A stretch of DNA of 64,000 bases from an uncultured Candidatus Saccharibacteria bacterium (lineage in GTDB: Bacteria; Patescibacteriota; Saccharimonadia; Saccharimonadales; EFPC-124). The stretch spans positions 65,383 through 129,382 of the forward strand of contig CAZJVU010000003.1 in assembly GCA_964550035.1 (NCBI GenBank), read 5' to 3'. The notes beneath the pieces were generated by a model. It made no database searches, was not told where the DNA came from, and saw only the letters and a list, made by a program, of their open reading frames with translations. Shown here piece by piece: positions 1-62,590 of this stretch (positions within the stretch are counted from its first letter, which is position 1; each line of letters begins with the position of its first letter). A program made the position numbers and the translations under genes.

Positions 1-725
1 GCGATATCTTTGGCGCAGATAACCCAATGGGTAAAACCATCAAGCTCGAGGACGACACATATACCGTCATCGGCGTCCTGAAAAGCAAAGAAGAAAGCGG
101 CTTCAACAACGCAAACCGTCAGATCTATGTCCCGGTCAGCAGCGCCCAAGCCACCTACAGTCTCACCAACTACAGCGCCATCTACGCCAAAGCGACGAAT
201 GACAGCGCTGTCGAATCGGCCAAGAACGCCATCAACGCCAAGCTCCTCAGCAACCACAGCAAGACCGACAAAACTGCCGACTTCAGTATCAGTACGCCGC
301 AAGACCTGCTCAACACCATCAAGCAGTCGACAGGCGTCTTCACGACATTGCTCGCCGGCATTGCCAGCATCAGCCTCGTCGTGGGCGGCATCGGCATCAT
401 GAACATCATGCTTGTGGCCGTCAGTGAACGCACGCGTGAGATTGGACTCCGCAAGGCGATTGGCGCGCGTACCCGCGACATACTGCAGCAGTTCGTGTTC
501 GAATCTGTCTTGCTCTGCCTGGCGGGCGGGCTGATCGGCATCGCCATCGGGGCACTGACCGCTGCAAATCTCAGCAAGGTTCTGACCGGTATCACGCCGG
601 TGGTCAGTATGGATTCTGTCCTTCTTGCTGTGGGTGTCTCGACGCTCGTCGGGCTCGTCTTTGGCATCTACCCAGCGGCCAAAGCTGCGCGGCTGAATCC
701 GATTGATGCGCTGCGTTACGAATAA
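1..725 (+). CDS. MacB/FtsX-type ABC transporter permease, C-terminal part (5' end outside window)
   Basis: Frame open from window edge; FtsX-domain 4-TM C-terminus (GIGIMNIMLVAVSERTREIGLRKAIGA...YPAAKAARLNPIDALRYE). Confidence 0.9.
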   Translation, partial: DIFGADNPMGKTIKLEDDTYTVIGVLKSKEESGFNNANRQIYVPVSSAQATYSLTNYSAIYAKATNDSAVESAKNAINAKLLSNHSKTDKTADFSISTPQDLLNTIKQSTGVFTTLLAGIASISLVVGGIGIMNIMLVAVSERTREIGLRKAIGARTRDILQQFVFESVLLCLAGGLIGIAIGALTAANLSKVLTGITPVVSMDSVLLAVGVSTLVGLVFGIYPAAKAARLNPIDALRYE

Positions 726-731
726 CAGGGT

Positions 732-985
732 GGCTGACCGACGCCGCTCATCCCCTTCTCGCCCTCGACTGTGTCGAAGCCCGGCGACGAAGGAACGGTA
801 GTTCCTGAGACCCGAGCAGGAGAGGGTGAGAATGGGGATGAAAAGGCGTCTGAGGATTCTGCGTGGACCGGCTTTTCACCCATGTCCCCATTCCCTCCTG
901 CTTGGGTCTCAGAGCTAACGCTCTTCGCCGCCAGGCTTCGATGACAGCCCCGGAAGAGGACATGGGTGAGCGCCGGCTGGCGTAG
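732..985 (-). repeat. Palindromic (long-hairpin) repeat element, copy A
   Basis: ~254 nt imperfect palindrome. Arm pairs include ctgagacccaagcaggaggg/ccctctcctgctcgggtctcag and gaatgggga/tccccattc. A second copy lies at 56366-56575 in inverse orientation. Confidence 0.8.
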
Positions 986-1019
986 AGTCACCAACTATAT
1001 AACTAAGGAGATCATTAAA

Positions 1020-1487
1020 ATGCCAATCCATGAATACCAGAAACAGATGTACAAAAAAATCGCCATCATCGCGGCGTTGATCATACTCCCCGTCGCCGGA
1101 TTCTTTGCCGGCATGCAATACCAGAAACAAACCAACCCCGAGAGCAATCAGCGCGCCGCGCGGTTCGGCGCCAACGGTCCGCACATGATGCGTAACCGCG
1201 CGATCGGTACCGTAAAGACAATCAACGACACCGCTATCACCGTCACCAGCCGTGTCGATAACAGCGACAAAACCTACACATTATCGTCCGGCACAACATA
1301 TAAAAACGGCACAGCCGACGCAAAAGCCAGCGACATCAAAACCGGCGACACAGTTATGCTCACGCTCGATGCGTCAGATACCACTAAGGTCACGACCGTC
1401 ACGCTCAACCCAACCAACATGTTCCGCGGCACCGACGACACCGGCCCTACTACTGATACCAGTGGTGGCGATGTGATGGTACAATAG
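1020..1487 (+). CDS. Membrane-anchored hypothetical protein (N-terminal TM, Thr/Asp-rich beta-type domain)
   Basis: ATG at 1020 preceded by AAGGAG; the longer ORF from 966 overlaps the repeat and has no RBS. Confidence 0.6.
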   Translation: MPIHEYQKQMYKKIAIIAALIILPVAGFFAGMQYQKQTNPESNQRAARFGANGPHMMRNRAIGTVKTINDTAITVTSRVDNSDKTYTLSSGTTYKNGTADAKASDIKTGDTVMLTLDASDTTKVTTVTLNPTNMFRGTDDTGPTTDTSGGDVMVQ

Positions 1488-6017: not shown

Positions 6018-6691
6018 CCATCTAGTTTATAACCAAATCCTCGCACTGTCTTGAGCAGTTGCGGCTCGCCGCGGAACGGGCGATCGATCTTGTTGCGAAG
6101 ATACCCGATGTACACCTCGACTGTGTTAAATAAAACGTCGGCGTCGTAGCTCCAGACATGCTGGATGATCATCTCTTTGCTGAGGGTGCGGCCTTTGTTG
6201 CGCATGAGGTATTCCAGCAGCGCGAATTCACGCTGTGACAAGTCGATTGTTTTATCTGCGCGACGGACTTCATAGCTTGTGGTGTCGAGCGTTAGGTCAC
6301 CTACCTCAAGCTTCATGCCGAGTGAGTCTTGCGGTCGGCGAAGAAGCGCACGGACGCGGGCCAAGAGCTCTTCGAATGCGAATGGCTTGACTAGGTAGTC
6401 GTCGGCGCCAGCGTCCAACCCAGCGACTCGATCGCGGACAGCGCCTTTGGCGGTTAGCATAAGTATCGGTGTGTGGTTGCCTTCTCCCCTGAGTTCTTTG
6501 CAGACACCGACGCCGTCCATCTCGCCCGGGAGCATGCGGTCGAGGATTATCATGTCATAGTCGTCGGCGCGGGCGCTGGCCAATCCGTCATCGGCATCAT
6601 ACACGACATCGACAGCAAAGGATTCTTGCTGGAGGCCTTTCTTGATTGCGTTCGCGATTTTGTGCTCGTCTTCTACTACTAGGATCTTCAT
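6014..6691 (-). CDS. OmpR-family response regulator
   Basis: Receiver domain (MKILVVEDE...DMIILD...LTAK) plus winged-helix C-terminus (LSQREFALLEYL...TVRGFGYKL). Confidence 0.93.
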   Translation of the reverse strand: MKILVVEDEHKIANAIKKGLQQESFAVDVVYDADDGLASARADDYDMIILDRMLPGEMDGVGVCKELRGEGNHTPILMLTAKGAVRDRVAGLDAGADDYLVKPFAFEELLARVRALLRRPQDSLGMKLEVGDLTLDTTSYEVRRADKTIDLSQREFALLEYLMRNKGRTLSKEMIIQHVWSYDADVLFNTVEVYIGYLRNKIDRPFRGEPQLLKTVRGFGYKLDG

Positions 6692-6804
6692 ATCTTGACC
6701 TATAGTATACCGGCTAACTGAGCTGTGTCTGAGAAATAGTGAAGTTGTTTTTATGTAGTATTATGGTATATTATTGTTGACTCTACGAGAAATGAGGCAC
6801 GATC

Positions 6805-7700: not shown

Positions 7701-7733
7701 AGGGCAGGGCGCACTCTCCGCGCGCCCTGCCCT
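7701..7733 (+). terminator. GC-rich hairpin
   Basis: agggcagggcgc / gcgccctgccct, 12-bp stem. Confidence 0.6.
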
Positions 7734-7756
7734 GCTTTACTTTTATGGCACCAATG

Positions 7757-7796
7757 CAAAAGCAGGCCCTAAGGGGAAGGCCTGCTTTTGGGTTTT
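7757..7796. terminator. Bidirectional rho-independent terminator
   Basis: caaaagcaggcc / ggcctgcttttg with T-run on plus and A-run on the other side. Confidence 0.7.
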
Positions 7797-27533: not shown

Positions 27534-27608
27534 TGGCGAGTGGCCAAATGGTAAGGCACTAGTTTCTGGCACTAGGGATTGAAGGTTCGAGTCCTTCCTC
27601 GCCAGCCA
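27534..27608 (+). tRNA. tRNA-Gln (anticodon CTG)
   Basis: Manual cloverleaf: acceptor tggcgag/ctcgcca, D arm gcc/ggc, anticodon stem ctagt/actag with loop ttCTGgc, T arm gaagg-ttcgagt-ccttc, encoded CCA; TATAAT at ~27515. Confidence 0.9.
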
Positions 27609-27715
27609 TGAAATTATTCAGATCAAAAGAGTTCCAAATTCTGGAGCACTTTTGCTCCCCACCACACCCAGCGGCAGGAGCAAATAATCGCAAAATATGG
27701 TATTATAACCATACT

Positions 27716-28960
27716 ATGCGAATACGAACTATTATTCTTAGCCTACTAACTATCACGACACTTGTAGTGGGCACTATCGCACCAAGCGTATCTGCCCAAA
27801 CCGATACATGGGGAGATTATTCTCAGATGTTCAAACAGAGCGCCGGACAATTCTTTAGCGGTGCCGACTACGGTGGCCAATGGGGCTGGACGCCTCAAAG
27901 CAGTACTACCAGCGACATCTCATGGTCGCCAAATTATGCCGAGCGTTTTATCAAGTCTGACAATTGGGTACTGCTTGATGGCTACAACAATGGGCCGGGC
28001 ACCGCAATCACGCAAGTTCAACGAGTAACTTCTGAGCAAATGGGCGACGCCAACTGTAATGGTATGACCGACCTGCCTTCTGCAAATGGCATGCAGCATT
28101 ACGCGCAGTGGAACATTCCGGCCTCGGGTTACTGCCTGGATGCAACCGGTACAATTACCTCGCCTACCAACGGTACGACCGTGAACTTCCGCCACCGTCA
28201 GCAGTGGAGCCCGCCTGCGGCATGTTCAAACGCGACCTTTACAGGCAAGACATGCATCAGTCAGCACGAACAGTGGTGGGACGACAATGGCCACCCATAC
28301 GGTTTGCAGCTAGATCGTTCAGGTTCACTCGCGAAGGGTCTTGGCATGGCCTTTACGATCCAGCAGACATACCCAAGTGCCTGGAATGCTGAGGGCAAGT
28401 TCTATAATCTGTCACTGGACGGAACGACAGCCTGGAGTCCCAGCACGGGGGCTCACCAAATCTATGGCGAAATTGCTAAAAAATGGAAAGCAATGGGAGC
28501 ATTTAATGGCCCCCAAGGCTACCCTACTTCCGATGAAAGCAGTACGCCTAATGGCTCAGCTCGATACAACAACATGCAGAACGGTGGCATTTACTGGTCA
28601 ACCTCTACCGGAGCGCAGGCAGTTTATGGCGCCATCTACCAGAAGTGGGGCCAATACGGTTATGAAACAGGTATTTTAAAACTCCCGACCACAAGTGAAG
28701 CCTCGACTCCAGACGGCGTCGGCCGCTACAATCATTTTCAAGGCGAGAATGGCTCTATATACTGGACCCCTTCTACCGGGGCACACGTGATACAGGGGAT
28801 GATCAAGTCGCGTTGGGCTGCACTCGGCTGGGAGCGTTCCTACCTGGGTTACCCCACGAGCGATGAGTTTGCAATTTCTGGCGGCCGCCAATCAAACTTC
28901 CAGAACGGCTATATCACATACAATGCTGCGACAGGAAAAGTCACTGACTACCACAAATAG
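27716..28960 (+). CDS. Secreted protein with C-terminal LGFP repeats
   Basis: Signal peptide (MRIRTIILSLL...SVSAQ); 3-4 tandem LGFP-type repeats (G.LGYPTSDE...G.YW/ITY...TG); the extension to 27608 overlaps the tRNA. Confidence 0.8.
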   Translation: MRIRTIILSLLTITTLVVGTIAPSVSAQTDTWGDYSQMFKQSAGQFFSGADYGGQWGWTPQSSTTSDISWSPNYAERFIKSDNWVLLDGYNNGPGTAITQVQRVTSEQMGDANCNGMTDLPSANGMQHYAQWNIPASGYCLDATGTITSPTNGTTVNFRHRQQWSPPAACSNATFTGKTCISQHEQWWDDNGHPYGLQLDRSGSLAKGLGMAFTIQQTYPSAWNAEGKFYNLSLDGTTAWSPSTGAHQIYGEIAKKWKAMGAFNGPQGYPTSDESSTPNGSARYNNMQNGGIYWSTSTGAQAVYGAIYQKWGQYGYETGILKLPTTSEASTPDGVGRYNHFQGENGSIYWTPSTGAHVIQGMIKSRWAALGWERSYLGYPTSDEFAISGGRQSNFQNGYITYNAATGKVTDYHK

Positions 28961-35676: not shown

Positions 35677-36696
35677 ATGAAGCACCCGACGGTTTTGTTC
35701 TTGGACAACACGAGCGCTGACAACTTGGCGCTGGCGCTGGCGGCGACCCGGCCTTCGTCCTTGTTGGACGTGAAGGCTATTTTCGTCACGGGGCGTGCAG
35801 CGCACACCGACCCCAGTGCCTCGATCGAAGACCGAGAAGAAAACTTTTCCAACTACATCCACTTCCTCAACGCCGCGCGCATGCTGGAGTTCCTCCAGAG
35901 TGCCGGTCGCCCGGACATCCCCATCATCATGGGGCGGCGCGTGCAGCGAACCGGAATTCGTACCGTCATCCCCCACCACATCCACGCAGACGAGAAGATC
36001 TACGACCTGTGGGACTCCTGGGGCAAAGCCAGAATTCACGAGTTCGCTGACGGCGTCCAGTACCTTCGTCACCTCAAGGCGAAGAAGCTCCTCGCGCTCG
36101 TCGGCGGACCGCTCACCGAAGTGGCGTGGATCCTGCAGCACGCGCCCGACGTCGCAGCCAAGTTCGGCACGATGCTCATCCAGGGAGGCGACTTCGCCAC
36201 CGACGAGTCTAGCAACCTCATCGGCGGCAAGGGCAACTCGTTCAACATCGCGTGTGACCCGAAGGCGGCGAACGTCGCGCTGAAAATGCATCGTGGGAAA
36301 GCCATCTTCCTCCCGTCAAACATGACCAAGCAGCGCGAACTCGGCTTCGCCACGCCCGACGAGATCGCGGCGCTGGGGGTGTACCGCCGGCTCGTCGACG
36401 TCTACCGGGTGCACTACGAGCACTCCGCCAAGCGGCGGGGAACCTCGTTGTTCATCCACGACCTGGGGTTGGTCATGCTCGCCGAGCAGCTCATTCGACG
36501 CAAGCGAGGCTTCCCCTACCAGCTGGAGCCGATCATGGTCCTGGAGGTACCCTTCCAGGCGCCAAAACCCGGTCAGCCCGAACGTCGCGGCACGGTCGTG
36601 GTCAAGCCGGTGCGGGTCAGCACGAACCGTTTCAGGGTGGTGTGGCAAGACACAAGGGACTACCGCACCCGCGTGGCTGCGTATCTCCGAAGTTGA
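35677..36696 (+). CDS. Inosine-uridine nucleoside hydrolase-like protein with degenerate N-terminal Asp motif
   Basis: VLFLDNTSADNLALALA (versus DxDxxxDD), GGPLTEVAWILQHAPDV...MLIQGG, NFNIACDPKAANV, IHDLGLVM; SD GGGAAGGTGA before ATG 35677. Confidence 0.6.
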   Translation: MKHPTVLFLDNTSADNLALALAATRPSSLLDVKAIFVTGRAAHTDPSASIEDREENFSNYIHFLNAARMLEFLQSAGRPDIPIIMGRRVQRTGIRTVIPHHIHADEKIYDLWDSWGKARIHEFADGVQYLRHLKAKKLLALVGGPLTEVAWILQHAPDVAAKFGTMLIQGGDFATDESSNLIGGKGNSFNIACDPKAANVALKMHRGKAIFLPSNMTKQRELGFATPDEIAALGVYRRLVDVYRVHYEHSAKRRGTSLFIHDLGLVMLAEQLIRRKRGFPYQLEPIMVLEVPFQAPKPGQPERRGTVVVKPVRVSTNRFRVVWQDTRDYRTRVAAYLRS

Positions 36697-36700
36697 GGAA

Positions 36701-36742
36701 AGGCCCTCCCGTGGTTGCCATCGTGGCGACCCGGGAGGGCCT
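36701..36742 (+). terminator. GC-rich hairpin
   Basis: aggccctcccg / cgggagggcct, 11-bp stem followed by TTTTCCTTT. Confidence 0.65.
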
Positions 36743-36778
36743 TTTCCTTTCCTACAGAGGGTAGTGTGGGTAGTAGCG

Positions 36779-38197
36779 CTACTCGGCCATCATAGGTTCT
36801 GCTGCTGCCTTGCGCGGCATCAGGAACACGAACGGAAGGCTGACTACCGTGAGAGCCAGGACGACGATGAGAGCGATCTCCATCGCGCTGACAAATCCAG
36901 CGGTTGCGGCCTGGAAAAATACCGAGGCAACTGCAGCCGAACCAATTGCTGACGAAAGCTGCTGAATCGAGCTGAACGAACCGCTCGCGCTCCCCGCCTC
37001 GTCCGGCTTGGCGTCGCCCAGCGCGATGGTTGGAATCGCCGCAAACGAAAACCCAATACCGATACCGATGATAAAGAACACCGGCACCAGCGCCCAAAGG
37101 TTGAGGTGCATTCCAAAGGAAGCAACGAGCGCCAGCAGCCCAACACAGCCAATGATATTTATCCCGAGGCCGATGAACACGAGCTTGCGCCCGAGCTTGG
37201 TCACGAGACCACCCATCGCAGCAAACCCGGCAGCAACGAGGCCCAAAGTGAGCGGCATCATGCTCAGCGAGGTATCCCTTGCGTTAACATGCAGCCCTAC
37301 TTGCAGGAACAGCGACAGCACAAAGAGCAACCCCGCCCCCGCAGCAACCGCCACAAGACACACGACCAGACCAGAGGTAAACCCGCGGTTATGGAAGAGT
37401 GACGGCTTGATGAGTGGATGATCCGCAGTTCGTTGACGATACGCAAAGGCGATGAACGCCAGAAGCCCGATGATGATCGAAACGATCGGCACGGCGCTCC
37501 AGCCATTGGTCGAACCTTCGATCAAGCCATACAGCAGCCCGAACATCGTGACACCAAGGATGCCCGACGCCCAGCCATCGATAACGATGGAGCGATCGCC
37601 CTTATCATCGCGCGGCAAAAGCTTCACTGCCATGATTATTCCCACGACACCAAGCACGAGGTTGATGAGGAAGATCGGGCGCCATGTCAGCCCAAACCAA
37701 TTGGCGCTAATGATGAACCCGGCAATGACCGGGCCAAGCACGCTCGAGATACCGAGCATTGGGCCAAACAACCCGAACGCCTTACCGAGCATTTCCTTAT
37801 CGAATGCTTTTGTCATGATCGCCATACCTTGTGGAATGAGCAAGGCACCGAATGCACCCTGCGCAATGCGCGCCGCGATAAGCACCGCCGGGTCAGGCGA
37901 AAATCCTGCGACCGCTGAGGCGAGCGTGAAGCCGCCCATGCCCAGCAGGAACAGCTTGCGCTGACCAAATTTATCGCCGAGCCGTCCGCCGATAACCAGC
38001 AGAACACCCATAGCGAGCATGTATGCTGGGCCCAACCACTTGATCAAGCTCACGCCGCCGCCCAGGTCATGCGCAATAGTCGGCGCGGCGATGTTGGTAA
38101 TGGTGCTGTCGATGACATCCAGTGCGTCGGCCAGAATAACCAGCCCAAGGATCGCCCACAGCCGGGGCTTTGAAAGTTTGTTGATTACCTTTTCCAT
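36779..38197 (-). CDS. MFS transporter, DHA2 (EmrB/QacA-like, 14 TMS)
   Basis: 472 aa; motif A GGRLGDKFGQRK; about 14 hydrophobic spans. Confidence 0.88.
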   Translation of the reverse strand: MEKVINKLSKPRLWAILGLVILADALDVIDSTITNIAAPTIAHDLGGGVSLIKWLGPAYMLAMGVLLVIGGRLGDKFGQRKLFLLGMGGFTLASAVAGFSPDPAVLIAARIAQGAFGALLIPQGMAIMTKAFDKEMLGKAFGLFGPMLGISSVLGPVIAGFIISANWFGLTWRPIFLINLVLGVVGIIMAVKLLPRDDKGDRSIVIDGWASGILGVTMFGLLYGLIEGSTNGWSAVPIVSIIIGLLAFIAFAYRQRTADHPLIKPSLFHNRGFTSGLVVCLVAVAAGAGLLFVLSLFLQVGLHVNARDTSLSMMPLTLGLVAAGFAAMGGLVTKLGRKLVFIGLGINIIGCVGLLALVASFGMHLNLWALVPVFFIIGIGIGFSFAAIPTIALGDAKPDEAGSASGSFSSIQQLSSAIGSAAVASVFFQAATAGFVSAMEIALIVVLALTVVSLPFVFLMPRKAAAEPMMAE

Positions 38198-39967: not shown

Positions 39968-40384
39968 ATGGAATCTGGCATCATCGTGGTCGTGGTCCTC
40001 ATGGGAGTGGCGGCGCTCGTCATGGGCATCCTGCACATTCGCGCGGGCATACCGACCAAATCCCAGCTGGAAAACGCCGAATACAGCATCGCACTGAAGC
40101 GCGGACACAAGAAGCGCCGCGGCCAGCTCCAGCGACTCTCGGCAACGTTCCTCGCGGCCTTCGCACTGCTGACCTTCGTCTCGGCGCTCTGGACTGTGCC
40201 CGCCCTCGTCCGCGAGATGCGCGACGCTCAGTACGACTTCTCCACGGGAACAACCCCCATCTCTGGGGTGCTGATCGCCGAGGCGGCGCTGACCGTCGTC
40301 GGGGCCATCGTGACCTTCGTGCTCTGGGTTCGGGCGTACCGCCGCCTCCAGGTGGTCAAGGCCATGCCCGACCTCGACAAATAG
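39968..40384 (+). CDS. Membrane protein (GC-rich orphan)
   Basis: 138 aa, 3 TM helices; followed by a 16-bp perfect hairpin. Confidence 0.55.
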   Translation: MESGIIVVVVLMGVAALVMGILHIRAGIPTKSQLENAEYSIALKRGHKKRRGQLQRLSATFLAAFALLTFVSALWTVPALVREMRDAQYDFSTGTTPISGVLIAEAALTVVGAIVTFVLWVRAYRRLQVVKAMPDLDK

Positions 40385-40390
40385 CACGGC

Positions 40391-40427
40391 CACGAGCGTG
40401 GGCGGGACTCACCCGCCCACGCTCGTG
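40391..40427 (+). terminator. GC-rich hairpin
   Basis: cacgagcgtgggcggg / cccgcccacgctcgtg, 16-bp perfect stem. Confidence 0.7.
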
Positions 40428-40519
40428 CATATGTACATCATCTGGCGCAGCGGGGAATCCGATCGCCAAGAGTAATGCAATCATCTATACTATGTTCTAC
40501 TAACAGTAAGGAGAAAATC

Positions 40520-45896: not shown

Positions 45897-46015
45897 CCCT
45901 TCGATCTCCACGTCACGGCGAGCCCGCGCTCCGCGCGCGGGCCGCCAGTGGACCCTATCGCTCAAAGCAATTTGAGCCATGAGGTCCGCTCAATACAAAC
46001 TGCTACAATAAGCTC

Positions 46016-53978: not shown

Positions 53979-54746
53979 ATGCGTGCAATTTGGAATGGAT
54001 CAATCAGCTTCGGACTCGTCAGTATTCCCGTCAGACTTTACAGTGGTAGCAATTCGCGGGCCGGTATCGACCTCGATATGCTTCACAAGGAAGACCACTC
54101 GCCGATTCGCTTTGCGCGGATTTGCCGCAAGGACGGCGAGGAAGTGCCTTGGGACGACATCGTGAAGGGGTACGAATACCGCGACGGCGACTACATCGTG
54201 CTGAGCCAGAAGGAACTCGACGAGCTCGATGCCAAGAAATCCCAGACCATCGATATCCTCCAATTCGTCAATGAAGACGACATCGACATCCGCTACTTCG
54301 AAAAACCATACTACCTCGAGTCCGACAAGGGCGGTGACAAAGCTTACGCGCTCCTGCGTGCAGCATTGAAGAAATCCGGCAAGCTAGCCCTCGCCCGATT
54401 TGCCATGCACGAGCACGCGCACATTGCGGTTATTAAACCCGTTGGCCGCGCGCTGGTGCTGAACCAAATGCGTTATCCTTCTGACCTTCGTGAGCCGGGC
54501 GAGCTGCACTTGCCAACCGAGAAAGAACTCTCTGAGAAGGAAATCGACATGGCGCTCAAACTCGTCAAGCAAGAGACCAAACCATTCATTCCCGAAGACC
54601 TGCGCGACACCTACACCGAAGAGCTCGAGGAACTCATCAAGGACAAAGCTAAAGGCAAGAAGCTCCCTAAAGGTCATGAATCCAAGGGCGCTTCCGGCAA
54701 CGCCAAAGACCTGATGAGCGCGCTCAAAGCCAGTTTAAAGGAGTAG
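53979..54746 (+). CDS. ku: Ku protein (NHEJ DNA end-binding)
   Basis: MRAIWNGSISFGLVSIPVRLYS...; Lys-rich C-terminal tail. Confidence 0.93.
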   Translation: MRAIWNGSISFGLVSIPVRLYSGSNSRAGIDLDMLHKEDHSPIRFARICRKDGEEVPWDDIVKGYEYRDGDYIVLSQKELDELDAKKSQTIDILQFVNEDDIDIRYFEKPYYLESDKGGDKAYALLRAALKKSGKLALARFAMHEHAHIAVIKPVGRALVLNQMRYPSDLREPGELHLPTEKELSEKEIDMALKLVKQETKPFIPEDLRDTYTEELEELIKDKAKGKKLPKGHESKGASGNAKDLMSALKASLKE

Positions 54747-54752
54747 CTGCCT

Positions 54753-56774
54753 ATGGGCTTGCGGGAGTATTTCCGGAAACGCAGTTTTAGCGAGACGCCT
54801 GAGCCAGAGGGCAACAGGAAGCCGGCGCGAGGCCGCGCTACTCCTCGGGCACAAGACGGTCGTCGGAGCAACACGACCTCGCGCCGCCATACGTTAAAAT
54901 TCGTTGTTCAGGAGCACCACGCCACCGCGCTGCACTACGATTTCCGCCTCGAGATGGACGGCGTTCTCAAAAGCTGGGCCGCGCCGAAGGGTCCGAGCAT
55001 GAATCCGCACGATCACCACCTGGCCATCCAGACCGAAGATCACCCTTACGAGTATCGCAACTTCGAAGGCGTCATCCCCGAAGGGAACTACGGCGCGGGT
55101 AACGTCATCATCTGGGATGAAGGCACGTACGAACCACGTGACCCGCAGGGCGACGAGAAGTCACTCTTGCGCGACCTGAAGAAAGGTCACGTCACATTTG
55201 TAATGCATGGCAAGAAACTCCAGGGCGAGTTTGCGCTCATCCGTATGCCGAATGCCAAGGAAGACGACGCCTGGCTTCTCATAAAGAAAGGCGACGAATA
55301 CGCCAACAGCACCGACGTCACCAAAGAAGACGAGTCTGTTCGCTCGCACCGCCATGTCGACGACCTCGGTGCGCACGGTAAGTTGCCTGATCTCAGCGAG
55401 TTTCCCAAAGTCCGCCAGCCCTGGACGGTCACGCCCATGCTTTGCACGCTCGTGGATGAGCCGTTTGACCGCGACGGGTGGATTTTTGAGATCAAATGGG
55501 ATGGCTACCGCGCGATCGGCACCAAGCATGGCGCCGACACGCAGCTTTACTCGCGCAATCAACTCGACTTCCGCGAGAGGTTTCCGCCCGTCGTCGAGGC
55601 GCTGCGCGAGATCAAGCACGACGTGATCCTCGATGGCGAAGTTGTTGTCGTGGATGATGAAGGCCGCGCACATTTTGAATGGCTACAAGGCTGGAATAAG
55701 GTCCCGCACGGCACACTCCAATATCACATCTTTGATATCCTCTGGTGTGACGGTCACGATGTGCGCAACTTGCCGCTCGTACGTCGCAAGGCTTTGCTCA
55801 GTGCCATCCTCCCGAAGAGCTCGGTGCTGCGCTACAGCGACCACGTCACTGGCAAAGGGCTCAAACTCTTCCACGAAATGCAGCGCCGCGGGCTGGAGGG
55901 CATGGTCGCAAAGCGCGCTGACAGCACATATCGTGAGAATGTCCGCGGTGGCGACTGGCTGAAAGTAAAGACACACATGCGCCAAGAGGTTGTGATCGGC
56001 GGCTACACTGAGCCACGTGGTGGGCGTAAATATCTCGGCTCGCTGCTCGTGGGCACATACGAGAAAGGTGAGCTGATATACCGTGGTCACTCCGGCGGCG
56101 GCATTGGCGATGAGCAACGCAAACAATTACAGGCAAAGCTCGCGCGGCTGGAGCGCAAGACGTCGCCGTTCAGCACCGAGCCAAAGCCGAACGCGCCGGT
56201 TCACTGGGTGAAGCCTGAGCTGGTATGTGAGATGGAATTTAGTGAATGGACGAGTGAGGGATCTATGAGGCATCCAGAGTTTAAGGGTTTGCGACCGGAT
56301 AAGAAGCCGGAAGATGTACACCGCGAGAAGTCAAAGTCCGTCAGCCACGCTGAGCATAGTCAGACCCACGCCAGCCAGCGCTCGTCTATGTCCTCTTCCC
56401 GACGGTATCGAAGCCTGGCGGCGAGGAGCGATAGCTCCGAGACCCAAGCCGGAGGGAACGGGGACATAGACGAAAAGCTGGTCCACGCAGAATCCTCAGA
56501 CGCCTCTTCGCCCCATTCTCCACCCCTCCTAAGACAGTCGGGATCGAAGAAGGGGGCGAGCGGCGTCAGCAGGCCGAATCGAAAAGTAAGGGACAAAAAG
56601 AAGGGGCGGACCGACCAACAGGACCCCAGTCCTTTAGTCTCCCGTTCGAACCAACTCACCTCGACAAAGTCTTCTTCCCCAAACACAAATACACCAAAGG
56701 CGACCTCTTCGAATACTACACCGCCGCCGCCGAGTACATCCTCCCCTACCTCAAGGACCGCCCACTCTCCATGA
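54753..56774 (+). CDS. ligD: LigD, phosphoesterase plus ATP-dependent ligase domains. The 3' third reads through a repeat insertion and out of frame into the polymerase region
   Basis: PE: FVVQEHHATALHYDFRLE..LKSWAAPKGPS. Ligase: EIKWDGYRA (KxDG), ...HPEFKGLRPDK. After ~56360 the sequence is low-complexity. Confidence 0.85.
   Translation: MGLREYFRKRSFSETPEPEGNRKPARGRATPRAQDGRRSNTTSRRHTLKFVVQEHHATALHYDFRLEMDGVLKSWAAPKGPSMNPHDHHLAIQTEDHPYEYRNFEGVIPEGNYGAGNVIIWDEGTYEPRDPQGDEKSLLRDLKKGHVTFVMHGKKLQGEFALIRMPNAKEDDAWLLIKKGDEYANSTDVTKEDESVRSHRHVDDLGAHGKLPDLSEFPKVRQPWTVTPMLCTLVDEPFDRDGWIFEIKWDGYRAIGTKHGADTQLYSRNQLDFRERFPPVVEALREIKHDVILDGEVVVVDDEGRAHFEWLQGWNKVPHGTLQYHIFDILWCDGHDVRNLPLVRRKALLSAILPKSSVLRYSDHVTGKGLKLFHEMQRRGLEGMVAKRADSTYRENVRGGDWLKVKTHMRQEVVIGGYTEPRGGRKYLGSLLVGTYEKGELIYRGHSGGGIGDEQRKQLQAKLARLERKTSPFSTEPKPNAPVHWVKPELVCEMEFSEWTSEGSMRHPEFKGLRPDKKPEDVHREKSKSVSHAEHSQTHASQRSSMSSSRRYRSLAARSDSSETQAGGNGDIDEKLVHAESSDASSPHSPPLLRQSGSKKGASGVSRPNRKVRDKKKGRTDQQDPSPLVSRSNQLTSTKSSSPNTNTPKATSSNTTPPPPSTSSPTSRTAHSP
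56366..56575 (+). repeat. Palindromic repeat element, copy B (210 nt, in frame within ligD)
   Basis: Aligns to the reverse complement of 732-985 with a ~45-nt deletion in one arm; 70 codons with no stop in the ligD frame. Confidence 0.8.
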
Positions 56775-57520
56775 ACCGCATGCCCAACGGCATCAAAGGC
56801 CCAAGCTTCTTCCAGAAAAACAACGAGCACCTGCCCGATTGGGTCCCGAGCGCTGACATCTGGAGCGACAGCAACAACGCCGACCTGCATTGGATTGTCG
56901 GCGACAAGCTCGACACGCTCCTCTACCTCGTACAGCTTGGTTCGATCGAAATCAACCCCTGGAACTCACGCGTCGGTCAACTCGACAGACCCGACTGGAT
57001 CGTCATCGACCTTGACCCCGAAGGCGTCACATTCAACGACGTCATCAAGGTGGCCAAAACAGTCCACGAAGTCACCAGCGAATGGGACATCCCAGCCTAC
57101 CCCAAGACTTCCGGCAAGACCGGCATTCACATCTTCATCCCCATGGGCGCGAAATACACCTACGAACAAGCCAAGAACCTCGCCCACCTCATAGCCCTTG
57201 AGGTCAACAAGCGCCAGCCCAAGCTTACCAGCGTCGAGCGTAACCCAGAGAAGCGCAAACACCGTATCTATCTCGACTTCCTCCAAAACCGCGAGGGTCA
57301 AACCCTCGCCGCGCCTTACTCTGTCCGCCCAACCGAGGAAGCCAGCGTCTCGATGCCGCTCCACTGGCGCGAAGTGAAGCTCGGCCTCAGCCCCATGGAC
57401 TTCACCATCAAGAACGCCCTTGCCCGCCTCAAGCGCACCGGCGACTTATGGGAGCCAGTCATGGGTAAGGGCATCGACCTCGCAAAAGTCCTGAAAAAAA
57501 TTGAATCTTCCAGCAAGTAA
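56435..57520 (+). CDS. ligD: LigD polymerase/primase domain reading frame (-1 relative to upstream ligD ORF)
   Basis: Frame open from 56435. It translates ...FEPTHLDKVFFPKHKYTKGDLFEYY...RPLSMNRMPNGIKGPSFFQKN...IVIDLDP... No ATG/GTG/TTG before ATG 56771. Confidence 0.75.
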   Translation, partial: LRDPSRRERGHRRKAGPRRILRRLFAPFSTPPKTVGIEEGGERRQQAESKSKGQKEGADRPTGPQSFSLPFEPTHLDKVFFPKHKYTKGDLFEYYTAAAEYILPYLKDRPLSMNRMPNGIKGPSFFQKNNEHLPDWVPSADIWSDSNNADLHWIVGDKLDTLLYLVQLGSIEINPWNSRVGQLDRPDWIVIDLDPEGVTFNDVIKVAKTVHEVTSEWDIPAYPKTSGKTGIHIFIPMGAKYTYEQAKNLAHLIALEVNKRQPKLTSVERNPEKRKHRIYLDFLQNREGQTLAAPYSVRPTEEASVSMPLHWREVKLGLSPMDFTIKNALARLKRTGDLWEPVMGKGIDLAKVLKKIESSSK

Positions 57521-57549: not shown

Positions 57550-57960
57550 ATGACACGGGCGCGTATTGCGATCTTAGGGGTAGTAGCTCTTCTTTGTATT
57601 GGAGGAATAGTGACGGGCGTCTTTGCGCTAGCCAATAACTCGCTCGGCTCGCCCAAAGAGCACACGCATACGGCCTGCAGTGGCGACCATAACGAGTACA
57701 CCGTTACCATCCAAAACGCCAAGCTCAGCATCGACAATATCCATGCCAAACGCTGCGACAAGCTCACCATCATAAATGGCGACGATACATTACGGCTCAT
57801 GGCCTTTGGCGTCCACGACCATCACCAAGCATACGACGGCACCGAGGAAAAGACCCTCAAGCGCGGCGATCAGCTGAGCGTCACACTCGACCAAGCCGGC
57901 ACATTTACCTTCCACGACCACTTGCACGATGAAGTAAAAGGCACATTCACGGTGGAGTAA
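57550..57960 (+). CDS. Membrane-anchored cupredoxin-like protein
   Basis: N-terminal TM; C-terminal GTFTFHDHLHDEVKGTFTV beta-sandwich signature; ATG directly follows TACAGTATATAT (leaderless?). Confidence 0.6.
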   Translation: MTRARIAILGVVALLCIGGIVTGVFALANNSLGSPKEHTHTACSGDHNEYTVTIQNAKLSIDNIHAKRCDKLTIINGDDTLRLMAFGVHDHHQAYDGTEEKTLKRGDQLSVTLDQAGTFTFHDHLHDEVKGTFTVE

Positions 57961-57964
57961 GGCT

Positions 57965-58852
57965 ATGAAGTTTACCTTTCCCAAACAGCTCAAAGTCCTT
58001 CTCATCACTGGCGGCATCCTCGTCACGCTTGCGGCGGTTGCGGCAGCGATATGGTTTATCAGCAACCACAACATTGCCGTGCTCAACCCGATGGGAACGA
58101 TTGCTGATCAGCAGCGACAACTACTAACTACCTCCGTATTACTGATGGCGCTGGTGGTGATTCCCGTCTTTGTGCTCACCTTCGGCATCGCCTGGCGATA
58201 TCGCGCCGGCAACAAGAAAGCCACGTACTCGCCTGAGCTTACTGGCAATAAGTGGGCTGAGGCGATCTGGTGGCTGATTCCGTTTGCAATCATCGTCGTT
58301 CTCGCTGGCATGGTTATTGTGAGTAGTCACACGCTCGACCCGTTCAAGAAACTTACGAGCAATAAACCGCCGCTCAAGGTACAAGTCATCGCGCTGGAAT
58401 GGAAATGGCTGTTCCTGTACCCCGAGCAGCACGTCGCCGCGGTCAACTACCTGCCGATTCCGACTGACCGACCAATTGATTTCCAGCTGACGAGCGATGC
58501 GCCGATGAACTCATTCTGGATTCCACAGCTCGGCGGTCAAGTCTACGCCATGTCGGGCATGAGCACACAGCTGCACCTCATGGCCAGCAAGCCGGGCGAC
58601 TACCGCGGCTCGAGCGCGAACATTAGCGGTGAAGGATTCGCCGGTATGACATTCACGACACACGCCACACCGCAATCCGACTTCGACAAGTGGGTTGCCG
58701 AAACGCAAAAGTCAAACAAGACAATGACGCTGGACACCTACAACGACCTCGCCAAGCAGTCCAAAAATGTCCCACCAGCTAGCTACACGTTCCCCGCCGC
58801 ATACGACAAACTCTACGATACCGTCATAATGAAATACATGTCACACCAGTAG
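57965..58852 (+). CDS. cyoA: Cytochrome bo3-type quinol oxidase subunit II
   Basis: Two TM helices plus a cupredoxin domain lacking CuA Cys ligands (quinol-oxidase type). Confidence 0.9.
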
Positions 58853-58857
58853 GAGGA

Positions 58858-60801
58858 ATGATGTTCGGACGACTTACTCTCGATGCAATCCCTAAAGAAC
58901 CGGTCACCCTCGGTGGTGTTGCAACGATGCTTTTGGGCGGCTTGGCCGTTGTGGCGCTCATCACGTACTTCAAAAAGTGGCGCTGGTTGTGGCAGAACTG
59001 GCTCACCTCGCTGGACCCAAAGAAAATTGGCGTGATGTATCTGGTCGTCGCGGGTATTATGCTGCTGCGTGGTCTTGGCGATGCACTGCTCATCCGTGTG
59101 CAGCAAGCGCTCGATGCCAATGCGCCGCTCAGCACCGACACGTTCCAGCAGATCTTTTCGGCGCACGGCACGATGATGATTTTCTTTGTGGCCATGGGCG
59201 TGATCTTTGGCATGATGAACCTCCTGATACCACTGATGATTGGCTCGCGCGATGTGGCGTTTCCGTTCCTGAACGCGGTGAGTTTCTGGCTGTTTGCCGC
59301 CGGCATGGTGCTGGTGAATGTGTCGTTGATGGTCGGTGAATTCCAGGCCGCTGGTTGGCTGGCTTATCCGCCGCTGAGCGAGCTCCAGTATAGCCCGGGT
59401 GTCGGCGTGGACTACTGGCTTTGGACGCTCCAGATTGCTGGCGCAGGAAGTTTGCTGAGTGGCATTAACTTTATGGTGACGATCATCAAAATGCGCGCGC
59501 CGGGTATGACGCTGATGAAGATGCCGCTTTTTGTATGGGCGTGCCTCGGCAGCTTGAGCCTTATCGTCGCTGCGTTCCCGATTCTCACCGCGACGCTGGC
59601 TATGTTGTCGCTGGACCGATTACTGGGCATGCATTTCTTTACGAGTAACGCCGGCGGCAACCCGATGATGTATATCAACCTCATCTGGGCATGGGGGCAT
59701 CCAGAAGTCTACATCCTCGTGCTACCGGCATTCGGCGTTTTCTCGGAAGTCGTAGCGACGTTCTCGCGTAAACCGCTCTTTGGCTACACCAGTATGGTGT
59801 GGGCGATTGTGGGTATTACCCTCCTGTCGTTTGTCGTATGGCTGCATCACTTCTTTACCATGGGCGCGGGTGCAGATGTGAATGCGTTCTTTGGCATCAT
59901 GACGATGATCATTGCTGTGCCGACGGGCGTGAAGGTCTTTAACTGGCTGTTCACGATGTACCGCGGCCGCGTCAGGTTCACCACACCGATGCTGTGGTTT
60001 ATGGGATTTGTTACGACATTTACGATCGGTGGCGCGACGGGCGTGTTGATGTCCGTGCCGGCGGTTGATTTCCAGATTCACAACAGTCTGTTCCTGGTTG
60101 CACACTTCCACAATATGATCATCGGTGGCGTTATCTTTGGCGCCATGGCTGGGCTGACGTATTGGTTCCCCAAGTTTACCGGTTTTCGCCTCAATGAATT
60201 CCTGGGCAAATGCGCGTTCTGGTGCTGGCTGGGCGGATTCCTTTTGGCCTTCGTACCGCTCTACATCCTCGGTCTGATGGGCGCGACTCGCCGCCTTGAC
60301 CATTACGACCCGTCGCTTGGCTGGCAATGGTTGTTCATAGTGGCTGGGTTCGGCGTGTTACTGATCTTGCTCGGCGTTGGTTTCCAGCTGCTGCAGATTG
60401 GCTACAGCATTTGGGACCACAAGAAGCACCCGAAGCCGGCAGAATCCGACCCATGGGATGGTCGCACGCTCGAATGGGCCGCATCTTCGCCGCCAAAGGA
60501 ATACAACTTTGCGGTTATTCCAACCGTCACCGAACGAGACGCCTTTTGGCATACAAAACAACGCGGTGTTGAGGTCCCCAAACACTACGAAGACATCGAA
60601 ATCCCCAAGAACACGCCACTCGGCATGTTCATTGCCGCCGGCGCGTTCCTGATTGGGTTCGGACTGGTGTGGCATATGTGGTGGTTGGCGATAGCTGGCT
60701 TTGTCGCAATTGTCGTGTTCATGCTTGTACGTTTTAGCGACGACAACACCGAACGGGTCATTACTGCCCGTGAAGTCGAGAAGATGGAGGCTGCGCTATG
60801 A
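58858..60801 (+). CDS. cyoB: Quinol oxidase subunit I (heme-copper oxidase)
   Basis: [25 protein letters not shown] motifs; 647 aa. Confidence 0.95.
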
Positions 60802-61379
60802 ATAACGACGCAGTAGCAACGACTCGTTCCGACAAAACAATCTTTGGGTTCTGGGTCTACATCATGACCGACTGCGTATTGTTTGCGACGCTTTTTGCGA
60901 CGTACGCCGTGCTACGTAATTCGACTGCGGGCGGACCGAGCTCGCACGATCTCTTTAATATGCCGTATGTACTTGTCGAGACGCTACTTCTTCTGACCAG
61001 CAGCTTTACGTGCGGGCTCGCACTGCTCGCGGCACGCACGCAGAAACTCAAACAGGTTAGCGTCTGGCTGAGCATCACGTTCCTGCTCGGGCTGTCGTTC
61101 ATCACGATGGAGCTGACCGAGTTCGCGCACCTTGCTGCCGAGGGCAACAGCTGGAATGCCAGCGCGTTTCTGTCGGCGTTCTTTACGCTTGTGGGTACGC
61201 ACGGGCTGCACATCAGCATCGGGCTGCTGTGGATGCTCGTGATGGGCGCATTCCTCCTGCGCCGCGGGCTGAATGAACATTCTACGCGGCGCCTCGAGTT
61301 GTTTAGTATTTTCTGGCATTTCCTGGATATTGTATGGGTATTTATCTTTACCATTGTGTATCTGATGGGGGTCGCATAA
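60798..61379 (+). CDS. cyoC: Quinol oxidase subunit III
   Basis: 5-TM subunit III pattern; 4-nt overlap with cyoB. Confidence 0.9.
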
Positions 61380-61723
61380 TGAAACGGTCACTTGTTCGCT
61401 ACATCAGCGGGTTTGTATTGTCTCTGCTGTTTACAGCTGCGGCGTACCTGGCTGTTACGCAGAAAGTCTGGGGCGCCGGAGCGCTCGTGGGCGTGATCAT
61501 CGGGCTTGCGATTGCGCAGGTGCTCGTGCAGCTGTATTTCTTCTTGCACCTGGGGCAAGAGACGAAGCCGCGATGGAAGCTTATGGTCTTGATCTCGACA
61601 ATCGGCATCCTTGGTATCCTCGTGTTTGGATCGCTCTGGATTATGCAGAACCTCAACTACAATATGATGTCGCCGCAAGAAATGAACGTCTACATGATCG
61701 ACCAGAACAGCCGAGGCTTTTAG
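61379..61723 (+). CDS. cyoD: Quinol oxidase subunit IV
   Basis: 114 aa, 3 TM helices; TAATG overlap with cyoC. Confidence 0.8.
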   Translation: MKRSLVRYISGFVLSLLFTAAAYLAVTQKVWGAGALVGVIIGLAIAQVLVQLYFFLHLGQETKPRWKLMVLISTIGILGILVFGSLWIMQNLNYNMMSPQEMNVYMIDQNSRGF

Positions 61724-61726
61724 CGA

Positions 61727-62590
61727 GTGTCCAAACTTAACGCGTATTTTCAGCTCACTAAGCCAGGTGTACTTTTCGGCAATGCACTGTCGGCTTTGGC
61801 GGGGTTTTTGTTTGCGAGTGGCGGTGCGGTCGATGTATGGCGCTTCGTATGGTTAAGCATCGGCACGACGCTGCTCATTGCATCAGCCTGCGTACTCAAT
61901 AACTACCTCGACCAAGACATCGACGCCAAAATGTCGCGCACCAAGAAACGTGCCGCCTGGATGCGAACGGTTGGCGGGCGAGGCGCTGTTAGTTTCTCGA
62001 TCGCTTTGGGCGTCGTCGGGCTTGGTGTGCTCATCGCCTACACCAACCCCTGGGTCGTGCTCATCGAGCTCATCGGCTGGTTTGACTACGTGGTGCTCTA
62101 CGGCATGTGGTCAAAGCGCACGTCCGTCCATGGCACCCTCGTCGGTAGCATCTCTGGCGCGGCGCCAATCCTGGCAGGCTACGTCGGTGCGCGTGGCTCT
62201 ATCGACATAGGGGCGGTGCTGATCTTCCTCGTCCTTTTCGTGTGGCAGATGCCAGAGTTCTATTCCATCTCGATCTATCGCCGCCGTGAATACGCTGCCG
62301 CGGGTATACCCGTTATTTCGGTCGTGCGTGGCGTCAAACGGACGATCACCGAAATTTTTGTGTACACTATACTCTTCACGATCTTTGCGCTCGCGCTCGG
62401 CCTAACTGGCTATGCGAGTACAACGTACACCGTTATTATGGCGCTCGTGTGCGCGTTGTGGCTGCGGGTTGGACTCCAAGGCTTCGCAGCTGAGGATGCA
62501 GACACCTGGGCTCGCAAGATGTTCAAATTCGCCATCAATATTCTCCTGCTTTTTTGCGTCCTCGTCGCCATCGACCCATGGCTCCCGTAG
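61727..62590 (+). CDS. cyoE: Protoheme IX farnesyltransferase (heme O synthase)
   Basis: UbiA-family NNYLDQDIDAKMSRT motif; GTG start. Confidence 0.9.
   Translation: MSKLNAYFQLTKPGVLFGNALSALAGFLFASGGAVDVWRFVWLSIGTTLLIASACVLNNYLDQDIDAKMSRTKKRAAWMRTVGGRGAVSFSIALGVVGLGVLIAYTNPWVVLIELIGWFDYVVLYGMWSKRTSVHGTLVGSISGAAPILAGYVGARGSIDIGAVLIFLVLFVWQMPEFYSISIYRRREYAAAGIPVISVVRGVKRTITEIFVYTILFTIFALALGLTGYASTTYTVIMALVCALWLRVGLQGFAAEDADTWARKMFKFAINILLLFCVLVAIDPWLP

Follow-up and report, generated by a model that had tools for sequence, protein, structure and literature searches.

A single-base frame break in the linker of a Ku-associated LigD gene from a soil Candidatus Saccharimonadales genome

The Ku-LigD locus and its two reading frames

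The window, that is, the whole 64-kb stretch of DNA that was analysed, carries a canonical Ku-linked LigD locus of a soil Candidatus Saccharimonadales genome, with the Pseudomonas-type order phosphoesterase (PE)-ligase-polymerase. The locus comprises the following features:

53979 to 54746, forward strand: Ku gene, the NHEJ operon partner, 6 nt 5′ of LigD (PF02735 Ku, E 3.4e-49)
54753 to 56510, forward strand: genuine PE and ligase (NTase and OB) part with the first stretch of the linker, 586 codons in frame 0
56511 to 57520, forward strand: rest of the linker and Prim-Pol domain, in the -1 frame (Pfam domain at 56693-57451)
56511 to 56774, forward strand: out-of-frame tail of the 673-aa ORF, 87 codons and TGA, without homology in frame 0
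56666 to 56698, forward strand: equivalents of M. tuberculosis PolDom Lys16 (56666-56668) and Lys26 (56696-56698) of the 5′-phosphate pocket, both 5′ of the first start codon
56771 to 56773, forward strand: first ATG of the Pol frame; it is not a real start but encodes an internal Met (..SMNRM..) that orthologs P0003 and P0005 have as well

An earlier sequence-only reading had described a ligase ORF running from 54753 to 56774, and this ORF is present on the forward strand with 673 aa and the PE and ligase Pfam domains (LigD_N at residues 53-164, DNA_ligase_A_M at 228-406 and DNA_ligase_A_C at 425-517). The 3′-phosphoesterase domain was recognised by PF13298 (E 9.6e-44) and by TIGR02777 (205 bits for a cut-off of 144), and the NTase and OB parts of the ligase by PF01068, PF04679 and TIGR02779 (298.7 bits, cut-off 227.75), with the KxDG motif of the ligase appearing as EIKWDG in the translation. 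The start of the polymerase is encoded in the -1 frame, as the same reading had proposed, with matches to LigD_Prim-Pol PF21686 (E 2.8e-87) and TIGR02778 (232.3 bits, cut-off 214.7). The adjacency of Ku and LigD is also found in loci L001, L002, L027 and L108-L110. The window shares with the Pseudomonas-type LigD (NCBIfam PRK05972; P. aeruginosa, Pol PDB 2FAO) the same three domains in the same order and the adjacent Ku, and the PRK05972 profile spans both halves of the gene, matching the ligase ORF with its positions 238-574 and the Pol frame with 555-867. It differs from that type in that the Lig-Pol linker is interrupted by one frame break, at 56510/56511, the ORF becoming continuous after the addition of one base, and in that this linker is very long (~140 aa) and made of hairpin-forming repeat modules.

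The Pol frame (codon starts = 2 mod 3) is open from 56435, just after a TAG at 56432-56434, and, as had been claimed, has no ATG, GTG or TTG until the ATG at 56771; the near-cognate starts within it are limited to ATC codons at 56492, 56543 and 56738. Among 72 selected ORFs of the window, the Pol ORF has 336 nt of open frame 5′ of its first start codon and the next largest value is 150 nt; the long start-less open frame of Pol is not due to chance. The match to PF21686 begins at profile position 1 at 56693, that to TIGR02778 from ~56654, and solved NHEJ polymerase structures (PDB 5dmu, 5op0, 2fao, 2iru) align from 56651-56654, so a product initiated at ATG 56771 would miss ~40 structured, conserved residues, a cost to the conserved N-terminus that had been foreseen. 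The missing stretch would include the two lysine equivalents, assigned through ungapped alignment (THLDKVFFPKHKYTKGD / TNADKVLYPATGTTKSD) to 2iru; the 5′-phosphate pocket residues of PolDom are Asn13, Lys16 and Lys26 (PMC8656161). The stop codon of the ligase ORF, TGA 56772-56774, overlaps the ATG at 56771 (ATGA). No promoter-like site was found near this ATG, and no convincing internal promoter or terminator between Lig and Pol. From 56435 to 56770 there is no start codon with an RBS or promoter 5′ of the complete Pol domain, the arrangement by which a stand-alone Pol would be recognised.

The comparison with orthologs revealed that in 119 of the 120 best matches all four Pfam domains are joined in a single protein of 807-946 aa, and that a single frame is used in all 20 ortholog loci having both flanking motifs. 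This supports the view, already held in the sequence-only reading, of one PE-Lig-Pol gene with a -1 frame change, as opposed to two genes with starts of their own; separately encoded Lig and Pol, which it had named as contrary evidence, were not encountered among these loci. In the PE and ligase part, the window deviates at 1 of 210 conserved columns (at least 95%), with an ortholog median of 2, and in Pol at 1 of 135 such columns (ortholog median 1), there being no deviation at the 19 conserved columns within the 41 Pol residues 5′ of ATG 56771. Judged by these columns, both domains are fully intact, without signs of decay. The best relatives of the window LigD show 78-85% protein identity, and no conspecific copies were found among GTDB representatives or JGI metagenomes, which contained orthologs of at most 85% only. 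The ORF map of the window contains no other split gene, overlapping ORF pairs belonging to different, complete Pfam families or to none, and therefore the assembly is not generally indel-ridden. A generally indel-prone assembly was considered and rejected, since the four same-strand overlapping pairs and the two ORFs with a long open upstream stretch correspond to different complete families or have no match.

Position of the missing base

56510 to 56511, forward strand: site of the frame break, with a base absent between G56510 and C56511, where the C4 run 56511-56514 begins

DNA alignments to L026, L027, L032/L110, L108 and L109 place exactly one absent window base between 56510 and 56511, with the position of the gap ambiguous within ~56508-56515. 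The window reads TCTTCG-CCCCATTCTCC, as compared with TCTTCGACCCCGTCTTCC in L026, TCTTCGACACCATCTTCC in L027, TCTTCGGCACCATCC in L032/L110 and TCTTCGGCCCCATCTTCG in L108/L109, and the window's own paralogous copy, TTTTCATCCCCATTCTC, keeps the base missing from LigD; the lost base may be A, G or C. In comparison with L026, the 15 bases 5′ of the gap are identical, as are 17 of the next 31 bases 3′ of it. Because this linker is of low complexity and changes through indels and shifts of frame, the conclusion of a single gap depends on the six ortholog loci (five distinct sequences) that have the same linker type.

At the protein level, five distinct intact orthologs read the junction 'SSDASS-[A/T]PSS..PKTVG..ERRQQ' in one frame. 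In the window, homology in frame 0, that of the ligase, ends at 'SSDASS' (56496-56510), and homology in the Pol frame reaches 5′ to 56511-56513 (P0011, P0012, P0004, P0010 and P0013; E down to 7e-8). The addition of one base results in a 922-aa PE-Lig-Pol ORF, whose repaired linker of 142 aa (EFSEW to FEPTH) equals the longest of the ortholog linkers (range 53-142). The earlier proposal that a single -1 change restores the ORF therefore holds, but its restriction to 56576-56640 does not, since a change anywhere from 56435 to ~56640 would suffice. The nonsense tail of the 673-aa ORF is likewise real, but its length, put at ~60 codons, is 87 codons by homology (56511-56771); it ends in ...LTSTKSSSPNTNTPKATSSNTTPPPPSTSSPTSRTAHSP followed by the stop. 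A 264-nt frame-0 run past the break is ordinary, as 15% of out-of-frame readings in the window's genes stay open for at least 88 codons. The antisense ORF at 56360-56890 gave no family match.

Hairpin modules in the linker

56499 to 56568, forward strand: conserved ~70-nt hairpin in linker-coding DNA, with the missing base in its 5′ arm and G56556 as the partner of that base
56366 to 56484, forward strand: linker 'module A', a repeat unit of ~115 nt that forms a hairpin (56382-56471) and is translated in frame 0
735 to 985, no strand assigned: intergenic imperfect palindrome of ~250 nt, composed of module A and a second, inverted copy of it, with 85-91% identity to the LigD linker

In the window and in three orthologs, the hairpin at 56499-56568 has a minimum free energy between -35 and -41 kcal/mol (z between -2.6 and -4.7). 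RNAalifold returned 27 pairs, 9 of them with compensatory double changes, and 95.7% of cells paired; none of 500 shuffles matched this covariation, and slid controls gave values of 0-3. The partner of the lost base is a window-specific G within a G5 run.

Module A, located further upstream (nhmmer E 5.5e-30), reaches a folding energy of -50.3 kcal/mol in 90 nt, which after GC adjustment ranks 47th among 6391 sequence windows, and frame 0 is the sole open frame across it, continuous with the ligase frame. The intergenic palindrome at 735-985 matches the LigD linker in blastn over 99 nt at 90.9% (E 3e-30) and over 166 nt at 85.5%, and folds at -142.5 kcal/mol (z -8.6), its arms being recognised by nhmmer with E 9e-30 and 6e-28; the 92-aa ORF of this intergenic copy has no protein matches. 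In the closest ortholog (L001), module A lies in reverse orientation in the LigD linker. Apart from that copy, the one in the window linker and the two inverted ones at 735-985, no further copies of module A were detected in the 506 kb searched. A high-copy nature of module A and of the GGGGCGGACC...CCCC module was rejected, as neither the window nor the flanking DNA of 110 loci contained more copies. Rfam and tRNA scans of the window returned only a tRNA-Gln at 27534-27608.

The intact orthologs L001, L026, L027, L032, L033, L108 and L109 translate their linker modules in frame, and homologous linker DNA is read in other frames via paired 1-nt indels, for example in L004 vs L005. Locus L033 carries an inverted segment between 26-nt perfect inverted repeats. 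The likeness of the +1 frame of the window (56335-56427) to the P0001-type linker was considered as frame-hopping and rejected; it arises because module A is reversed in L001 and is itself palindromic. The linker modules are palindromic and hairpin-forming, as is expected of RPE/MITE-like repeats, and were compared with Rickettsia palindromic elements and intragenic MITEs (PMC10969869). They resemble the Rickettsia elements in being palindromes of ~70-150 nt translated in frame within an otherwise functional gene, with an additional intergenic site. Unlike those elements, the module is present in just three copies at two loci in the 64 kb and has no copies outside LigD linkers in ~440 kb of related genomes, so that any mobility, like any TIR or TSD, is putative.

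Origin and meaning of the frame break

We consider, with a probability of about 0.88, that this LigD was broken by one base missing in a long, disordered and fast-evolving linker, as an ordinary lesion or assembly error and not as programmed frameshifting. The fusion of the orthologs, together with the absence of recoding signals and of decay, therefore points to a very recent single-base deletion or to a consensus error. These two possibilities are inseparable because the closest relatives found are just 78-85% identical in protein, and we give roughly even odds to a very young mutation and to a consensus or assembly error.

The lost base would have sat in the 5′ arm of the conserved quasi-palindromic hairpin, beside the C run, and a contraction from C5 to C4 is plausible because its partner is the window-specific G of the G5 run. 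This setting of hairpin and C run would favour polymerase slippage or template switching in vivo, as well as errors in vitro. Quasipalindromes are mutation hotspots (PMC7202029). The change in the window is similar to the quasipalindrome template-switch/slippage mutations described there in affecting 1 nt of one arm, next to a homopolymer, but differs from them in that the arms are not obviously more complementary after the change, and here the mechanism is only inferred.

A more complex event in the repeat-rich linker, for instance a hairpin module of a length not divisible by three that was inserted or inverted, or at least two indels, appears improbable. The window linker is 70-250 nt longer than ortholog linkers, the module recurs at another site of the window and has the opposite orientation in the nearest ortholog, and other orthologs have switched linker frame by paired indels, all of which would suit such an event. 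However, frame 0 remains unbroken from the ligase through module A, the stretch from module A to the 'SSDASS' junction is in frame in L026 and L027 too, and the identity with L026 extends on both sides of a gap of exactly one base.

Programmed -1 ribosomal frameshifting of the dnaX / IS3-transposase type is an established system. At the LigD locus it would take place at C AAA AAG (56594-56600) or elsewhere in 56435-56640 and would produce PE-Lig together with full PE-Lig-Pol, a slip at the A-run giving DKKEGADRPTGPQSFSLPFEPTHLDK. The run in question is the following:

56592 to 56603, forward strand: GACAAAAAGAAG run, not the lesion site

The sequence-only reading had singled out this A-run (GAC AAA AAG AAG) as the site of an indel or slippage, a proposal that we discard, as the break lies ~85 nt further 5′, outside 56576-56640. 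The locus is like dnaX / IS3 in having overlapping frames related by -1 and a run of Lys codons ending in A AAG in frame 0; a strong conserved hairpin inside the overlap and the integrity of both domains would also fit recoding. Unlike those systems, it has no canonical heptamer, no stimulator at the right distance and no conservation of the arrangement, and its homology junction is distant from the Lys run. Between 56435 and 56650, frame 0 lacks any X XXY YYZ heptamer, the only near-heptamer being C AAA AAG, 3′ of the break, and the 90 nt 3′ of the A-run (56601-56690; -17.8 kcal/mol) fold no better than shuffles (z = -0.68). The conserved hairpin lies 5′ of the A-run, with the frame junction within its stem, and is present in orthologs that need no frameshift. 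The run itself, GGACAAAAAGAAGGGGCGGAC, is inherited: the intact ortholog L005 (= P0023, 892 aa) has the same sequence without a single base difference and translates it in the Pol frame as GQKEGAD. In addition, frame 0 has no homolog over 56511-56600, whereas the Pol frame there matches at least seven orthologs, and no ortholog shows the overlapping arrangement. On these grounds the A-run was rejected as a lesion or slip site, and we regard programmed frameshifting as very improbable, although low-level spontaneous -1 slippage at C AAA AAG may rescue some full-length LigD.

Separately encoded LigD domains are well established, and a Pol unlinked to the ligase would resemble stand-alone NHEJ polymerases such as PDB 5dmu ('NHEJ Polymerase'), the best structural-sequence match. 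A split system of separate PE-Lig and Pol, with Pol started at ATG 56771 through ATGA termination-reinitiation, as its overlap with the ligase stop would allow, or at ATC 56492/56543, is nevertheless highly unlikely: stand-alone genes have a start codon 5′ of the conserved N-terminus and this Pol has none, ATG 56771 is an internal Met common to fused orthologs that would leave out both lysine equivalents and has no promoter-like site, the orthologs are fused, and the absence of deviations 5′ of it is unexpected after long non-translation.

Returning to the loss of one base in the linker, its consequences depend on its nature. If the deletion is real, the gene would encode a 673-aa PE-ligase ending in 87 nonsense residues, and a functional polymerase domain would be lacking, since the only start codon would remove the lysines of the 5′-phosphate pocket. 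Such a natural polymerase-less LigD would predict altered NHEJ, with no templated or non-templated end filling and no 5′-phosphate-guided synapsis. If the missing base is an error, the organism has a LigD of 922 aa. The break by itself is of little weight: in a gene from a MAG, such a change of one base calls for annotation as a frameshifted LigD or for a check against the reads, and not for a claim of recoding or of a split NHEJ system.

The context of the break is of more interest, namely a repair-enzyme linker assembled from covarying hairpin repeats whose orientation differs between close orthologs, while the frame in which one and the same linker DNA is read varies among orthologs. As a clean natural case, it would show how palindromic DNA can be tolerated and recruited by disordered linkers, and it also accounts for the proneness of this spot to indels. 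It is possible, if rather doubtful, that the LigD linker of soil Saccharimonadales is a nursery of selfish or self-templating palindromic modules, which are translated as disordered linker with orientation and frame varying by species and whose hairpins are kept by compensatory change, with the window as a real, uncompensated frameshift intermediate and the module spread to or from the intergenic site 55 kb away.

The two frames of LigD

Translation of both frames confirmed the two-frame arrangement of LigD, the PE-Lig-Pol (phosphoesterase, ligase, polymerase) repair protein, that a sequence-only reading had proposed. The features of the ligase frame (frame 0), and the Ku gene ahead of it, are as follows:

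53979-54746: Ku gene, 6 nt upstream of LigD
54753..56774, + strand: PE-Lig ORF, 673 aa, frame 0
aa 53-164 of the 673-aa ORF, + strand: LigD phosphoesterase domain (domain profile match)
aa 228-406 of the 673-aa ORF, + strand: ligase adenylation domain (domain profile match)
aa 425-517 of the 673-aa ORF, + strand: OB domain (domain profile match)

Both TIGR02777 and TIGR02779 exceeded their cut-offs in this ORF. The -1 (Pol) frame is open from 56435, after a TAG at 56432-56434, and contains no ATG, GTG or TTG up to the ATG at 56771; the open stretch before this first start codon measures 336 nt, and among 72 selected window ORFs the Pol ORF was the only one with such a stretch above 150 nt. A complete LigD_Prim-Pol domain was found in the Pol frame (PF21686, E 2.8e-87, profile position 1 at 56693), the match to TIGR02778 beginning at ~56654 and the alignment to solved NHEJ polymerases at 56651-56654.

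Searches with the provisional fusion protein as query revealed fused PE-Lig-Pol proteins of 807-946 aa in 119 of the 120 best matches, several named Candidatus Saccharimonadales, with 78% identity for the top match. The single non-fused match (P0027) is the 673-aa ORF of the window itself, in the public NCBI record, so that the same break stands there. Furthermore, GTDB representatives and JGI metagenomes supplied ortholog loci, of which all 20 having both flanking motifs (EFSEW ... FEPTH) read through in a single frame without stops; separate Lig and Pol genes, which the sequence-only reading had held would speak against a broken fusion, are thus not what the orthologs carry. Locus L002 and the window agree in gene order, with Ku and LigD followed by a small cupredoxin-like gene and this by quinol/cytochrome oxidase genes. 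Downstream of LigD, the region 57550-62590 (cupredoxin-like gene, COX2/COX_ARM subunit, COX1) is a predicted terminal-oxidase cluster of aerobic type in this Saccharimonadales genome, and synteny with L002 leads us to expect COX3, COX4_pro and a UbiA-family gene next after COX1.

Columns at least 95% conserved were scored in an alignment of the repaired protein and 119 orthologs. Deviations numbered 1 of 210 in PE+Lig and 1 of 135 in Pol (ortholog medians, 2 and 1, respectively), and none of 19 conserved columns deviated in the 41 Pol residues preceding ATG 56771; this comparison revealed no second lesion in LigD. By ungapped alignment to 2iru, two codons upstream of ATG 56771 correspond to Lys16 (56666-56668) and Lys26 (56696-56698) of M. 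tuberculosis PolDom; these lysines, with Asn13, belong to the 5'-phosphate pocket (PMC8656161), and a product begun at ATG 56771 would be devoid of them. This ATG overlaps the TGA of the 673-aa ORF (ATGA, 56771-56774), as in translational coupling; it is, however, an internal Met codon common to the fused orthologs, and the overlap is therefore coincidental. LigD here is not a split system.

Position and nature of the frame break

The A-run GAC AAA AAG AAG (56592-56603), earlier proposed as the place of an indel or slippage, was found identical (GGACAAAAAGAAGGGGCGGAC) in L005, the locus of the intact 892-aa LigD P0023; its translation there, in the Pol frame, is GQKEGAD, a peptide also present in P0016. 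Pol-frame homology in the window reaches ~85 nt further upstream, and the earlier placing of the break was off by about this distance. Programmed -1 frameshifting was unsupported on every testable criterion, since no X XXY YYZ heptamer occurs in frame 0 from 56435 to 56650 (the only near-match being C AAA AAG), the 90 nt downstream of the A-run are no more stably folded than shuffled sequence (z -0.68) and the A-run is shared with the intact L005; the LigD break is not of this kind.

The length of the linker between EFSEW and FEPTH is hypervariable (53-142 aa among matches where both motifs were found), and the window's linker type is common to several orthologs. P0011, P0013, P0012, P0004, P0010 and L032 encode '..SSDASS[A/T]PSS[T/S/I][P/S][P/S][K/S]T[V/G].....ERR[Q/R]Q..' in a single frame; the window has 'AESSDASS' in the ligase frame and 'PFSTPPKTVGIEEGGERRQQAE' in the Pol frame. 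The window DNA at this junction is CAGACGCCTCTTCG-CCCCATTCTCCACCCCTCCTAAGACAGTCGG, the L026 equivalent being CAGACGCCTCTTCGACCCCGTCTTCCACTCCTCCTAAGACAGTCGG, and L027, L032/L110, L108 and L109 show, as L026 does, one extra base (A or G) after TCTTCG. The frame switch and this extra base indicate that one base is missing between G56510 and C56511, and adding one there yields a 922-aa PE-Lig-Pol ORF. The tail of the 673-aa ORF is out of frame, as had been noted, with a length by homology of 87 codons rather than ~60.

No other split gene was found in the window, and its overlapping same-strand ORF pairs are different, complete families, which argues against a generally indel-ridden assembly. Neither the best protein matches nor the scans of GTDB representatives and of JGI metagenomes yielded a conspecific sequence. 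All the data fit a consensus error as well as a real deletion of very recent origin, the two being about equally probable. Altogether, LigD is here a canonical gene with an ordinary frame break of a single base.

Hairpins and repeats of the linker

Two hairpin-forming elements were located in the linker:

56366-56484: module A, repeat unit of ~115 nt of linker, containing a separate hairpin of -50 kcal/mol at 56382-56471
56499-56568: ~70-nt hairpin (L026 1791-1860; L027 4158-4227; L032 631-700; L108/L109 2049-2118)

The deletion sits in the 5' arm of the ~70-nt hairpin, within protein-coding linker DNA. Single-sequence folding gave z-scores of -2.6 to -4.7, and the consensus of six sequences comprised 27 pairs, 9 of them with compensatory double changes, with 95.7% of cells paired, values reached by 0 of 500 shuffles; slid controls gave 0-3 compensated pairs. 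G56556 is the pairing partner of the column that lost its base; orthologs have G-C or A-U at this pair, suggesting that the lost base may have been a C of a C5 run. The hairpin could have been kept as an RNA structure, or its inverted-repeat arms may evolve in concert. Since quasipalindromes are known mutation hotspots (PMC7202029), the quasipalindromic linker DNA would be a plausible cause of the 1-nt loss.

Module A is found again, on the opposite strand, at about 735-985 (85-91% identity), in the gap that separates an FtsX-like permease gene (27..725) from ORF 966..1487. Two inverted copies, one per arm, form an imperfect palindrome of ~250 nt there (-142.5 kcal/mol as folded RNA, z -8.6), and the base missing from LigD is kept (TTTTCATCCCCATTCTC). 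In L001, the closest ortholog, the linker has module A reversed (6590-6703, minus strand, against window 56371-56484; E 2e-25) and still in frame, so that its P0001-type linker peptide is the antisense translation of the window's, the two LigD proteins taking their linkers from opposite strands of homologous DNA.

A second module (GGGGCGGACCGACCAACAGGACCCC, 56603-56627) reads forward in L004 and L036; in L033/L034 its orientation is reversed, a segment at about 2640-2790 being inverted relative to L004/L036, with 26-nt perfect inverted repeats on either side (GACCAAGACGGGGTGGCAGTTGGCGG ... CCGCCAACTGCCACCCCGTCTTGGTC). In L033 the module lies between these repeats within an intact gene, and the inverted sequence is identical in two independent assemblies. 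Homologs of window 56588-56640 (L004 3619-3660, L005 3640-3690) are read in different frames in intact orthologs (GQKEGAD.. in L005, EDKRRGGPTNRTP in L004) via paired 1-nt indels, which look like compensated frameshifts in a disordered linker.

The other strongest GC-adjusted local folds in the window (36661-36790, 7701-7790, 40341-40480 and 45901-46000; z -3.9 to -4.8) showed no sequence kinship to the linker modules; that at 36661-36790, between convergent genes, is probably a terminator. The sole RNA gene detected in the window, tRNA-Gln(CTG) (27534-27608), has its 3' end right at the earliest potential start of ORF 27608..28960.

The linker modules resemble the Rickettsia RPEs (PMC10969869) in being in-frame palindromic elements; module A occurs at two loci only in 64 kb and has no copy in the flanking DNA of 110 other loci, which is too little to speak for mobility. 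The frame break itself is of low interest, and it is the hairpin-repeat architecture of the linker that is worth following.
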